Shown here: positions 60,965-64,000 of the stretch, piece by piece | How the letters are laid out: the number at the start of each line of letters is the position of its first letter | How positions within the stretch are numbered: position 1 is the first letter of the stretch | From: an uncultured delta proteobacterium | GTDB taxonomy: Bacteria > Desulfobacterota > Syntrophobacteria > Syntrophobacterales > Syntrophobacteraceae | NCBI GenBank assembly: GCA_963808625.1 | Contig: CAWEHK010000021.1 | Coordinates: 32,001-96,000, forward strand | Reading direction: 5' to 3' | Length of the DNA stretch: 64,000 nucleotides | Made by a program: the position numbers and the translations under genes | Notes under the pieces: model-generated | The model's input: only the letters and a program-made list of their open reading frames with translations | Database searches by the model: none | Told to the model about the DNA's origin: nothing

Positions 60965-61372
60965 TCACTGTGATCGCACTTCCAGCCTCAGCCCCTCGAT
61001 CTTCTCGAAATCGCGCCGGTTAGCCGTGATAACCGAATAGTCAAGGGAAATGGCCGTGGCTGCGATGATCAGGTCGTGGGCGCCGATGGTCAATCCCTTC
61101 TTTGCCAGGGAGGCCCAGATGCGTGCATAAATGCGCGCCACCGTGGTGTCGAAGGGAAAGATGGGGAATGACTCCAACACCTTTTCAACGAAGGACTGGC
61201 GCTTCAGCCGACGGGCCTCGGTATCGGCGCGTTCCACTCCATGCAGCAGTTCCGCAACGGTAACCACACTGATGCCGAATGGTTCATCCTCGCGACCAGA
61301 CACGAGGATTTGCACCTGTGCTCGGTTCCGTTCAAGGGAGATGATTTCGCTGGAATCAAAGATTACCCCCAT
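60965..61372 (-). CDS. vapC: PIN-domain (VapC-like) toxin
   Basis: IFDSS, VAELLHG, DLIIAATA and TANRRDF. Confidence 0.9.
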   Translation of the reverse strand: MGVIFDSSEIISLERNRAQVQILVSGREDEPFGISVVTVAELLHGVERADTEARRLKRQSFVEKVLESFPIFPFDTTVARIYARIWASLAKKGLTIGAHDLIIAATAISLDYSVITANRRDFEKIEGLRLEVRSQ

Positions 61373-61644
61373 ACCGTATCCTCCGGCAGAGGGGGTTGGG
61401 CTTTGACTGCCCCAAGAACGTCATCGGCAAAGTTGATGTCATCGGGATCGAGCTTCGGTAAGGTCTGAAAAATGCCTTTCAAATCGCCCATATGTCGGGG
61501 AGAACCGGCTTCATCAACCGGGACAAGGGCCGCCGCCGGTTTTCCCCCGCGAATGATCGTATAGCGGTCCCCACGGTATTTGATGTTGTTCAACAGTTCG
61601 GAAAAATGTCTGACCGCCTCGGTAGCGCTTATGTCTGGTCGCAT
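61363..61644 (-). CDS. Phd/YefM-family antitoxin
   Basis: ISATEAVRHFSELL..IIRGGKPAAALVP; overlaps the toxin start; SD GAGGAGG. Confidence 0.88.
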   Translation of the reverse strand: MRPDISATEAVRHFSELLNNIKYRGDRYTIIRGGKPAAALVPVDEAGSPRHMGDLKGIFQTLPKLDPDDINFADDVLGAVKAQPPLPEDTVWG

Positions 61645-62178
61645 GGTTTCCTCCTCGTAAAATATTATTATCATATTTTACACAAACAATGCGTGACCGG
61701 CAAGAGGACTCTGCCCCAATCGGGATAAATCGACATCGCCTCATGCAGCCCGAAGCCCCAGCCTCGACCCATCTCCAGAGTGACGTGGGAGAGCATGGCA
61801 TTGCACACGGGATTTTCAAATCACCTTTCCCATCCGCTCTGCGATAATGAGCAATACTGCAATTTCCCAGCGACCCGCGAGAGCCAGAAGAGGCAGCGCC
61901 AGGACATCGCGCACGATGCGACGCAGGGGGATAACCTGGCTGCTGACGATCAGGTTGTGACATGCCTCAGAAGAGGATTTCGCGATCTTACCTTGACTTG
62001 ATTTCTTATTCGTTGAGTACCGTGCCATTCAATGACTGTCTGACGATTTCCATTTCCACTCGAATGCTCCTTCTTCCTGTCTGGGCCGGCCCTGACCCGG
62101 AATGCTTGGTGATGGTGTTCTAAATTCTCGCGCCTTCCCACCGTAGAGCGTTTCCGTGGCGGGTCTCCAATTTGGATA

Positions 62179-62229
62179 TTGACATTCTGAATTATACGCA
62201 TATAAACGTATAGTAATATATTGCTATAC
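62179..62229 (+). promoter_or_regulatory. Promoter with overlapping palindromes (candidate ArsR operator)
   Basis: TTGACA-N16-TATAAA; TATACG-N8-CGTATA (62193-62212); GTATAGTAAT-AT-ATTGCTATAC (62208-62229). Confidence 0.65.
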
Positions 62230-62444
62230 CAATTTGGAATGTTTTAAGGCCTTGTTTGAGATCAGTCGAAAGGGCCTCAGCAGGGCTTCCAGTGACCGGA
62301 CAATAGGGAGGAGTGTCTCTGATGAAAAAGGCGAGCGCTGTCATCTTCGGAACTGCCGCAGAAGTGCCTGCCGGCTCGGCATAAAACAGGATGGATGATT
62401 GTCTATGGAAAAGCCAGCCCGAGGAAAGCCGTTAAGGGGGCTCG

Positions 62445-62807
62445 ATGGAGCAAAAGAGAAGGAGGAACATCCTGTTGCCGCGGCGCAGGAGGCAATGGTG
62501 CTGCGCGAGCGAGCACTTCCAGACCGTCGCTTTTCTTGCAAAGAGCCTATCGGATGAGAACCGGCTGCGGATCATCCTCTGCGTGAGCAACGGCAAGAAG
62601 TCCGTCTCGAGCATCGTTGAGGAACTCGGTCTTTCGCAGCCCCTGGTTTCCCATCACCTGAAGGAGCTCAAGCGATCGCTGCTGGTCAAGATCGAGCGCA
62701 ACGGCCCTTTCATCTATTACGAACTGGTTGATGCGAGAATCCTCGATGTCTTTCGGACATTGAGCACCGTGGCAACGGATTTGCTGACCGCAAGGAAAAC
62801 CTTTTGA
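62445..62807 (+). CDS. ArsR/SmtB-family transcriptional regulator
   Basis: KSLSDENRLRII..LGLSQPLVSHHLKEL..IYYEL. The N-terminal 20 aa are uncertain. Confidence 0.9.
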   Translation: MEQKRRRNILLPRRRRQWCCASEHFQTVAFLAKSLSDENRLRIILCVSNGKKSVSSIVEELGLSQPLVSHHLKELKRSLLVKIERNGPFIYYELVDARILDVFRTLSTVATDLLTARKTF

Positions 62808-62832
62808 GAGAGGCGGAGGTGATCTGATCCGT

Positions 62833-63282
62833 ATGGAAGAGATGCTGAAAATAGTTGGCCACATGGATCCGGAAGAAGCGCTCACCGAAATATCCCAAGT
62901 CCTGAAAGTGCTTTTCTCCGCTTTGGGTGAAGAGGCGCGTTCGCAATTCCTGTGGGACCTCATGGGAGAGTCCCGGGGCGACAAGGTGTCGAGCCTGGTC
63001 CATCTCTGACTGGCCGAATGCATGGGCGAAGGTGTCGACCCGACGCAAATGTGTCAGAGACTGGTGGATAAGGTTGCCCAATCCAAACAACTGATGGCGA
63101 TGACCGATCCGGATCTCCTGGTGCTGTTCGAAGACTGGTTTGAAGAACTGGAAGAGGAGATCATCTCGCTCGTCAGCGAGCATGGCCCTCTCAAAGCGGG
63201 AGAGCTTGCCGAAAAGACCGGGCTCTCCCTGCGGGGGGCAACCTTCCTCCTCTCAAAGCTCAAACGTGAGGGAAAATTGTAG
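62833..63282 (+). CDS. Putative selenoprotein (149 aa; Sec59 at TGA 63007-63009) with a C-terminal winged-helix-like segment
   Basis: SD GGAGGT then ATG 62833, 58 open codons, TGA, then an in-frame continuation LAECMGEGVDPTQMC. SECIS-like hairpin at 63024-63041. The internal ATG at 63022 has no SD. Confidence 0.75.
63024..63041 (+). promoter_or_regulatory. Putative SECIS element
   Basis: GGGCGA [AGGTG] TCG-A-CCC. The loop starts 20 nt after the UGA, with lower pairings TGC/GCA and CTGGC/GTCAG. Confidence 0.65.
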
Positions 63283-63320
63283 AACCTGAGCAGTCTTCAT
63301 TCTGCAGGAAAGGTCTTCTA

Positions 63321-64000
63321 ATGCAGAACAAGAGAACGACCTTCACAGCCCTTGTGGCGGTACTGCTTACGGTTGGGGCCCTCTGGCTTACCAATCGCGC
63401 CGTTACTCCCAAGCAGGCTGCATGGGACGATGTTTTGGCCGAAGCGACAGCCGGAGGCTACAAGATTATCACCACCGACGAGCTTTCCGAGCGCTATCAA
63501 AACGATGCCAAAAGCCTTCTCCTGGTGGACACTCGCCAGGAATGGGAGTATCGGACAGGGCATCTCCCGGGAGCGGTAAACTTTCCCATGGAGCCGACCT
63601 CATGGTCGAGATGGCGCAAGGCATCGGCACTCGAAACCTTCCTCGGGCCGGATAAGGATCGCACCATCATCTTCTACTGAGCGGGCCTCACCTGAGTCCG
63701 CAGCGACTCGGCGGCCCGTGTGGCCGTAAAGCTCGGTTATCAGAACGTCTACCGCGACCCTTATGGCTATCCTGAATGGCAGGGGAGAGGGTTGCCCGTT
63801 GCGAGCGCCCCGGCAGGCCTAGCCCAAACAAGCGAAGAGCCCAAGGCGCCGGGACCTCTTTACGGCTGGGCCATGATCTGGACCCTGTTGGGCATCTTCG
63901 CCGGTGGCATGGCCTTGAACCTCACCCCTTGCGTCTACCCCCTGATTCCTATTACCGTCTCCTACTTTGGCGGCCAGGCCACAAAGGGAGGAGAAGGCCA
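63321..64000 (+). CDS. Membrane-anchored rhodanese with two Sec (TGA 63678-80 and 63693-95) fused to a DsbD/CcdA transmembrane domain; 3' truncated
   Basis: VDTRQEWEYRTGHLPGAVN..IIFY-U-AGLT-U-VRSDSAARVAVKLGYQNVY..GYPEW..GLPV..ALNLTPCVYPLIPITVSYFGG, all in one frame. Confidence 0.88.
63711..63727 (+). promoter_or_regulatory. Putative SECIS element
   Basis: GCGGCC [CGTGT] GGCCGT. The loop starts 21 nt after the second UGA and 36 nt after the first. Confidence 0.65.

Follow-up and report, generated by a model that had tools for sequence, protein, structure and literature searches.

A complete tsoR-tsoA-tsoB-tsoC cassette with four selenocysteine codons, a conserved operator-like palindrome, and a tentative link to thiophilic metal(loid)s in an uncultured delta proteobacterium

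A 64,000-nucleotide stretch of DNA from an uncultured delta proteobacterium (contig CAWEHK010000021.1 of assembly GCA_963808625.1, positions 32,001 to 96,000; referred to here as the window) ends within a locus that is a complete tsoR-tsoA-tsoB-tsoC cassette, with four selenocysteine (Sec) codons in three genes. The system is already known and named: it is Tso, the "three selenoprotein operon." The explanation of the locus that we judge best, with modest confidence, is a Tso cassette in which a DsbD-type relay runs through TsoB, TsoR and TsoA carry out regulation, and function leans toward metal(loid)s. The source assembly comprises 4.8 Mb in 54 contigs and is rated 84.6% complete, and the window corresponds to C21:32001-96000 in our numbering. 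Coordinates beyond the window edge were read as locus L003, in which a position equals the window position minus 60999, and they are given below as window equivalents.

The identity of the locus was established with curated family models, and all four NCBIfam Tso models exceeded their cut-offs. TsoR, an ArsR/SmtB-type regulator, matched NF045707, whose model name, "Dbac_1936_reg," suggests a Desulfomicrobium strain, at 172.7 bits (cut-off, 115), and TsoA matched NF045695, "LULAXC motif selenoprotein," at 225.8 bits (cut-off, 170) in a match that spans the TGA. TsoB matched NF045694, "rhodanese/DsbD fusion-like selenoprotein," at 1024.3 bits (cut-off, 805), and TsoC matched NF045708, "NEPxGxxU motif selenoprotein," at 145.4 bits (cut-off, 45). 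The available part of a 2026 review (PMC13188914) credits Haft and Tolstoy 2025 with "Tso (three selenoprotein operon)" and lists the TsoA, TsoB, and TsoC families with the motifs LULAxC, UxxxxU, and GxxU; the Sec motifs at the locus are HLULAEC in TsoA, YUAGLTUVRS in TsoB, and GGKPU in TsoC. With four models above cut-off and the system named in that review, it follows that the system is already known. The first-pass annotation of the window, made from the letters alone, had called it a candidate new system, a claim that the curated models for all four genes and the 2025 description overturn. Its reading of the locus as an inducible operon of several selenoprotein genes fared better: a conserved same-strand cassette does lie behind a putative promoter with an operator-like palindrome. 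TsoX and TsoY had no match in the window's genome, and the control genomes gave no match either.

The coordinates of the cassette and its control region are collected in Table 1. The first-pass annotation had given the gene coordinates, the intergenic gaps (25 nt between tsoR and tsoA and 38 nt between tsoA and tsoB), and the number of in-frame UGAs, and all were exact; the three TGAs span 689 bp. It had also stated that the operon continues past the window edge. tsoB runs beyond that edge to window equivalent 65153, for a total of 610 residues, and a scan downstream found tsoC there, with a fourth UGA and a Sec insertion sequence (SECIS)-type hairpin. For tsoR, an in-frame TTG at 62475, preceded by AAGGAGG, is an alternative start, and its relatives are alignable only from residue 21 to 28 on.

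Table 1. Features of the tso control region and cassette (window positions; those of tsoC are window equivalents)
Feature	Position	Strand	Description
-35 hexamer TTGACA	62179..62184	+	Sequence reading
-10 hexamer TATAAA (5 of 6)	62201..62206	+	16 nt after the -35 hexamer
Operator-like palindrome ATATAAACGTATAGTAATAT	62200..62219	.	Consensus ATATAAA-N6-TTTATAT, 12/14 here
Second, locus-specific palindrome, GTATAGTAATA with TATTGCTATAC	62208..62229	.	10/11 complementary (repeat tool)
tsoR	62445..62807	+	ArsR/SmtB-type regulator, 120 aa from ATG 62445
tsoA	62833..63282	+	149-aa selenoprotein; helical N-terminal domain with HLULAEC, C-terminal helix-turn-helix (HTH)
UGA, predicted Sec59 of TsoA	63007..63009	+	TGA in 27/27 copies
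SECIS-type hairpin of tsoA	63024..63041	+	Loop AGGUG; 100% of cells paired
tsoB, first 226 of 610 codons	63321..64000	+	Signal-like segment, rhodanese domain with FYUAGLTUVRS, start of DsbD membrane domain
UGA, predicted Sec120 of TsoB	63678..63680	+	TGA in 30/30; catalytic-Cys position of rhodaneses
UGA, predicted Sec125 of TsoB, and SECIS-type hairpin 1	63693..63710 (codon 63693-63695)	+	TGA in 30/30; codon within 5' arm
SECIS-type hairpin 2 of tsoB	63711..63727	+	Loop CGUGU here, CGGGU in most relatives; 100% paired
tsoC, 112 codons	65092-65430	+	Overlaps tsoB end; in-frame TGA at codon 16

Comparison of the copies identifies the in-frame UGAs as Sec codons. TGA occupies the Sec position in all 27 copies of TsoA, each of the two positions in all 30 copies of TsoB, and the single position in all 29 copies of TsoC, with invariant flanking motifs; the TsoB of L084, which is in two pieces, and the TsoC of L056, which is in two frames, were left out of these counts. 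The relatives' proteins are 47 to 88% identical, and coding conservation continues on both sides of every TGA. No Cys forms of TsoA, TsoB, or TsoC were seen among the Tso copies aligned and the TsoA database entries fetched. The conservation of the TGA in all copies and the family models that span the TGAs agree with the first-pass annotation, which had taken the UGAs for Sec codons and not true stops. The same annotation had expected standard gene calling to fragment these genes, and the best 120 of 1235 TsoA database matches are indeed mostly 86-residue pieces cut at the TGA. All 14 of the full-length TsoA entries fetched read W at that position, with TGA called as Trp.

RNA structure points in the same direction: each UGA is followed by a SECIS-type hairpin, and compensatory changes back three of these four. 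In the tsoA hairpin, the pair 26-39 is AU in 14 copies, GC in 12, and GU in 1. In hairpin 2 of tsoB, the pair 42-54 is GC in 21 copies, AU in 6, and CG in 3, and the pair 45-51 is CG in 29 and UA in 1. The two UGAs of tsoB lie 15 nt apart, with their hairpins arranged in tandem. The TsoC hairpin, GCCCA-GGU-UGGGC, is 97.9% paired. The genome also encodes Sec machinery over all cut-offs, namely selB (384 bits), selA (621.5 bits), and selD (372.4 bits). The selD gene (L013; G000:C44:20727-21647) has one in-frame TGA, making it a selenoprotein gene itself.

Next, the distribution of the cassette was examined. The TsoB model was over its cut-off in 26 of 401 sampled genomes of the phylum, the window's own included (about 1 in 15). 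All 30 over-cut-off matches have exactly two TGAs; weaker matches cover the DsbD part only and have no TGA. The comparison set consisted of 30 loci from 26 other genomes, that is, the 29 other over-cut-off matches plus one split copy. The first-pass annotation had staked its operon on synteny across Desulfobacterota, and the order tsoR-tsoA-tsoB-tsoC is kept in 24 of the 30 relatives' loci, counted on either side of tsoB: in 24, tsoB is directly preceded on its own strand by tsoR and tsoA (neither is present in L067, L074, L076, L080, and L081, and the contig ends in L068), and tsoC lies downstream in 24 (missing in L062, L067, L076, L079, and L081, with the contig ending in L074). Clustering of the read-through open reading frames on the operon strand of the 31 loci, the window's included, yielded no further conserved selenoprotein family. 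None of the public sequencing runs holds the locus DNA (all shares were at most 0.18). Two RNA libraries of relatives contain contigs that are 85 to 95% alike on tsoR, tsoA, and tsoB, and one contig of 308 nt spans the tsoR-tsoA junction; these contigs are a weak hint of expression and do not demonstrate a single transcript.

The cassette is preceded by a putative promoter whose hexamers, TTGACA-16-TATAAA, agree with the sigma-70 hexamers at 11 of 12 positions and recur in relatives. A consensus promoter scan, whose rule requires T at position 6 of the -10 hexamer, made no call for the tso promoter. The palindrome ATATAAA-N6-TTTATAT was present at 11 or more of its 14 positions in 20 of 26 tsoR upstream regions, compared with a mean best score of 8.6 for shuffled sequences; two of the six regions with no match have less than 200 nt of sequence. 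Of the other 25 tsoR upstream regions, 11 have TTGAC 13 to 16 nt ahead of the conserved palindrome, as does the region here, a spacing that places the TATAAA -10 box inside the left half-site of the palindrome. As read from the sequence, a palindrome over the -10 box is the classic layout of a repressor operator. A scan of the 4.8-Mb genome found 11 sites that match the operator at 12 or more of 14 positions; the motif alone therefore defines no regulon, and the evidence lies in its conserved position and not in the match itself. The repeat tool also reported a longer inverted pair, 62182-62193 with 62231-62242. The first-pass annotation had described a promoter overlapped by palindromes, and these elements sit where it placed them.

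Further features of this region were noted. An exact 10-nt direct repeat, CCAATTTGGA, at 62167-62176 and 62229-62238, flanks the promoter and operator with a spacing of 62 nt. The leader from the -10 box to the tsoR start (62207-62444, about 230 nt) is unusually long; the relatives have about 40 to 190 nt from the palindrome to the conserved TsoR core. Rfam gave no match to the promoter, leader, or operon at E values up to 1.

The product of the first gene, a regulator, was then compared with characterized sensors. TsoR matches Pfam HTH_5 at 48.7 bits and NF033788 at 72.4 bits (cut-off, 55), and it scores 44.1 bits with the BigR model, for which the cut-off is 155. Among 26 TsoR cores, 14 contain no Cys, 11 contain one, and 1 contains two; there is no conserved Cys column, and the sole recurrent column holds Cys in 9 of the 26. 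Only two His residues are invariant, both in the SHHL DNA-reading helix. The available part of a published account (PMC10451225) describes the ArsR-type regulator SoxR as a sensor of sulfane sulfur, places SoxS, a thiol-disulfide oxidoreductase of the periplasm, in sox clusters, and gives two cysteines as the sulfane-sulfur-sensing feature of SoxR, SqrR, and BigR. Since TsoR has no conserved Cys, it lacks both the Cys triad of ArsR and the two Cys of SoxR, SqrR, and BigR. The first-pass suggestion that the ArsR protein senses a metal, metalloid, or persulfide is thus not supported, as the 26 TsoR cores do not share the conserved cysteines that define such sensors.

Candidate sensing residues are found instead in the neighboring protein. 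TsoA has an invariant U-x3-C-x10-C arrangement ahead of its HTH (U59, C63, and C74 in 27 of 27 copies), and the C-terminal HTH, residues 105 to 147, matches Pfam HTH_24 weakly (23.9 bits). A Foldseek search with the TsoA structure model gave no significant match (best E value, 0.73), and only the last 45 or so residues resemble a winged HTH. We suggest, tentatively, that TsoR might repress the operon at the palindrome and that the Sec- and Cys-bearing TsoA might supply the sensing that TsoR lacks.

Relatives of TsoA were sought among 1.8 billion representative proteins, and 45 loci from many phyla (L085 to L129) were taken. These distant relatives are selenium free: they have a Met-rich stretch (MMxMM...) instead of the LULAxC stretch and retain the NPxEMC cysteine, the TPExRxLFEEW motif, and the HTH. 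They match the TsoA model alone, below its cut-off (57 to 74 bits), and no curated family matches them above cut-off. In 31 of the 45 loci, they are immediately preceded on the same strand by a TsoR-like ArsR gene, for which TsoR is the best model (86.5 bits, below cut-off). Within 5 kb, ACR3 was found in 10 of the 45 loci, HgcA in 6 (419 bits, over cut-off), HgcB in 4, an ArsC-type reductase in 6 (below the equivalog cut-off), an ArsE-type thioredoxin in 3, a methyltransferase in 12, and a permease in 6; 15 of the 45 have at least one arsenic- or mercury-type gene. From these neighborhoods, the TsoR-like and TsoA-like pair looks like a conserved module tied to genes for thiophilic metal(loid)s. 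The available part of a preprint by Gionfriddo et al. (bioRxiv 10.1101/2022.10.17.512643) describes ArsR-like control of hgcAB by arsenic in one strain, ND132, through a regulator with a four-Cys motif.

The largest protein of the cassette combines domains of known types. Pfam identifies Rhodanese (58.9 bits), DsbD_TM (1.1e-39), and Thioredoxin_7 domains in TsoB, and three redox pairs are invariant in 30 of 30 copies: the rhodanese domain has U120/U125, the DsbD membrane domain C204/C323, and the C-terminal thioredoxin domain C493-x2-C496. The DsbD model is confined to residues 184 to 578, and the rhodanese domain therefore occupies the place of the periplasmic N-terminal domain of DsbD. The N terminus of TsoB has a hydrophobic segment (residues 6 to 24) with K and R ahead of it. 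Sec120 aligns with the catalytic Cys of the solved rhodaneses 6mxv and 6k6r, and the active-site loop, U-A-G-L-T-U-V-R-S, is two residues longer than theirs and includes the second Sec. The DsbD family is a known transmembrane conduit of electrons between thiols and disulfides. By analogy, a cytoplasmic reductant would reduce the membrane Cys pair of TsoB, as in DsbD; the membrane pair would pass electrons to the periplasmic thioredoxin domain, and that domain would keep the periplasmic Sec-Sec rhodanese loop reduced. We consider such a relay through TsoB, with the rhodanese replacing the DsbD N-terminal domain, to be probable.

TsoC has no signal-like segment, and its Sec16 lies at the start of helix 1. 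Its structure model is confident (pLDDT, 85.9; pTM, 0.74) and has a thioredoxin-like fold, with thioredoxins as the best matches (E value, 2.5e-3; TM score, 0.52 to 0.55). TsoC may be a cytoplasmic partner of the system.

The neighbors of the Tso loci themselves were surveyed in the 30 relatives. A VTT/DedA-type membrane protein follows tsoC in 17 loci, a SAM methyltransferase occurs in 6, a DsrC/TusE-family protein in 3, a GcvH-related protein between tsoB and tsoC in 3, and an ACR3 arsenite transporter directly upstream of tsoB in 2 (L067 and L076). DedA proteins are linked to selenite. At the window's own locus, the next gene after tsoC is a CHR-family chromate-transporter homologue (L003 4508-5685; window equivalents 65507-66684) that is split over two frames near L003 4740-4780, either as a frameshifted pseudogene or through an assembly error. 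ChrA was considered as a conserved partner and set aside, since apart from this locus it was seen in L066 alone, and there on the other side.

Variant forms of the cassette genes were also observed. In L074 (6272-6940), the place of tsoR and tsoA is taken by an ArsR-rhodanese fusion of 223 residues; its loop, CRGPHC, is C-x4-C, a spacing equal to the U-x4-U of TsoB. Tandem duplicates occur among L057, L058, L060, L063, L068, and L078, with two tsoR-tsoA pairs (L057 and L058) or two copies of tsoC; the second tsoC type in duplicated loci has NDPCGLTU. Free-standing double-Sec rhodanese paralogues, which match TsoB at about residues 4 to 175, were found on G051:C23, G373:C26, G397:C53, and G325:C208. 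These rhodanese-only paralogues have two in-frame TGAs (three in one case), and their genomes also carry tsoB. Just upstream of the tso promoter, on the opposite strand, are genes for a PIN-domain protein (60965-61372, minus strand; 53.9 bits) and a Phd/YefM-like antitoxin (61363-61674, minus strand; 26 bits, below cut-off) that overlap by 10 nt and form a type II toxin-antitoxin pair.

Other explanations of the cassette were weighed against these data. If the UGAs were true stops, the pieces would be separate small genes or decayed genes. Public gene callers do end genes at the TGAs, and tRNA-Sec was not found in the assembly: ARAGORN listed 39 tRNAs, none of them for Sec, and the best match to RF01852 was tRNA-Trp. 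The assembly is incomplete, and a missed tRNA-Sec is therefore no evidence of absence; selA, selB, and selD are present. Hairpin 1 of tsoB is 95% paired with no compensatory change, and the sole compensatory change in the TsoC hairpin, a GC-to-CG swap, is at the window's own locus, both points against the Sec reading. Protein conservation across every TGA in all copies, family models that span the TGAs, and the compensatory changes in the SECIS hairpins leave true stops hardly credible. It is a more serious objection that TsoR alone might be both sensor and repressor, in which case TsoA would be either an unrelated redox protein or another protein that binds DNA independently. The NF033788 score marks TsoR as typical of ArsR/SmtB proteins, such repressors usually act alone, and the HTH match of TsoA is weak, with no wing in the model. 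What makes this doubtful is that TsoR has no conserved Cys and has its two invariant His in the SHHL helix, that the TsoR-like and TsoA-like pair is kept across phyla, and that 24 of the 30 Tso loci contain both TsoR and TsoA and the rest contain neither, with an exception in L057, where the regulator of a second pair is broken.

The trigger and substrate of the system divide the remaining readings. Our working guess, held with less than even confidence, is a thiophilic metal(loid), for example arsenite, antimonite, or mercury: relatives of the regulator pair lie near metal(loid) genes, which tips the guess for Tso toward metal(loid) stress. Sulfane sulfur or a selenium species is nearly as likely, because of the rhodanese fold and the DsrC and GcvH-like neighbors. 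An explanation built on the latter keeps the same cassette and relay and has the Sec-Sec rhodanese carry or reduce sulfane sulfur, polysulfide, or selenium species, to which the regulators would respond. It draws on a rhodanese fold whose catalytic Cys position is filled by Sec120, the DsrC/TusE and GcvH-related genes, the ArsR-rhodanese fusion in place of TsoR and TsoA, the VTT/DedA-type protein after tsoC, and the precedent of sulfane-sulfur sensing by SoxR next to SoxS (PMC10451225, in the part available). However, the two cysteines by which SoxR, SqrR, and BigR are defined are lacking in TsoR, the active-site loop is two residues longer than that of sulfurtransferases, the sulfur-type neighbors are rare (3 of 31 loci each), and the relatives of the regulatory pair have arsenic and mercury genes, and not sulfur genes, as neighbors; taken as a whole, we find chalcogen trafficking somewhat unlikely. 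A further proposal dispenses with the electron relay and treats TsoB as a hand-over chain for soft metal(loid) ions, from the periplasmic Sec pair to the membrane Cys pair and on to cytoplasmic TsoC. MerP-MerT is a model for such hand-over of a metal ion across a membrane. Paired Sec or Cys sites on both sides of the membrane, the single Sec in TsoC, the hgcAB and ACR3 genes near the regulatory-pair relatives, and the existence of a MerT-like selenoprotein family (PMC13188914, in the part available) are compatible with it. Yet the membrane and C-terminal domains of TsoB match the DsbD_TM and thioredoxin models, those of a known electron conduit, and the 31 Tso loci showed no mer genes, so that we regard hand-over as highly improbable.

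Several observations count against the Tso explanation favored here, with its relay, regulatory pair, and metal(loid) leaning. The DsbD model covers only part of TsoB and scores 248 bits, less than its cut-off of 330, and the inferred topology of TsoB comes from homology and a crude hydropathy plot only. The TsoA structure model is weak (pLDDT, 74.5; pTM, 0.38), with pLDDT values of 58 to 65 around the Sec. The arsenic and mercury neighbors belong to distant relatives that lack Sec, and the Met-rich motifs of those relatives are not arsenite ligands; 30 of the 45 relative loci have no arsenic- or mercury-type neighbor, and related genomes are not independent. Among the Tso loci, the two with ACR3 belong to one genus and both lack tsoR and tsoA, and the DsrC/TusE and GcvH-related neighbors (3 loci each) are of sulfur type.

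A bolder proposal joins these strands. TsoA might be a Sec-containing sensor, through U-x3-C-x10-C, that partners the Cys-free TsoR in response to a thiophilic metal(loid); Tso might be an envelope defense of the arsenic, antimony, or mercury type with a diselenide rhodanese kept reduced by the relay; and the selenium-free, Met-rich module might control ars and hgcAB genes in many phyla. We regard the combination as unlikely. If it is true, TsoA would be a Sec-based transcriptional switch, and a link to hgcAB and ars regulation, should it hold, would also bear on the control of mercury methylation genes. Tso packs four selenocysteines into three adjacent genes, all of which gene callers cut at the UGAs. 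The conserved operator, the Cys-free repressor with its Sec- and Cys-bearing partner, and the link to arsenic and mercury methylation genes make the function of Tso testable and indicate which inducers and which DNA site to examine.

Comparison with known systems places each part of the cassette. Like ArsR/SmtB sensors, TsoR has the HTH_5 fold, the SHHL recognition helix, and an autoregulatory placement at a palindrome over the promoter; it differs from ArsR, which uses three Cys for As(III), and from SoxR, SqrR, and BigR, which use two for sulfane sulfur, in having no conserved Cys, and it differs from the ArsR/SmtB sensors in being accompanied by a Sec-bearing HTH protein, TsoA. The relatives of the TsoR/TsoA pair resemble the ArsR-like regulators of hgcAB and ars genes in adjoining hgcA, hgcB, ACR3, and arsC. 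The ND132 regulator has a four-Cys motif that the TsoR-like proteins lack, and the available part of the preprint (bioRxiv 10.1101/2022.10.17.512643) mentions no TsoA-like partner. TsoB shares with DsbD, and also with ScsB and CcdA, a DsbD_TM domain with one invariant Cys per half and a C-terminal thioredoxin CxxC; in TsoB, a rhodanese domain that carries two Sec takes the place of the N-terminal domain of DsbD, and electrons probably end up on a small molecule rather than on a periplasmic protein. With the single-domain rhodaneses 6mxv and 6k6r, TsoB shares both fold and catalytic-residue position, whereas selenium stands in place of sulfur at both TsoB positions in 30 of 30 copies and the loop is the longer one. 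Finally, the locus matches the described Tso operon in its NEPxGxxU, LULAxC, and UxxxxU motifs, in the R-A-B-C order, and in all four Sec codons, and it differs in what follows tsoC, which is a frameshifted chromate-transporter homologue here and a VTT/DedA-type membrane protein in 17 of the 30 relatives.

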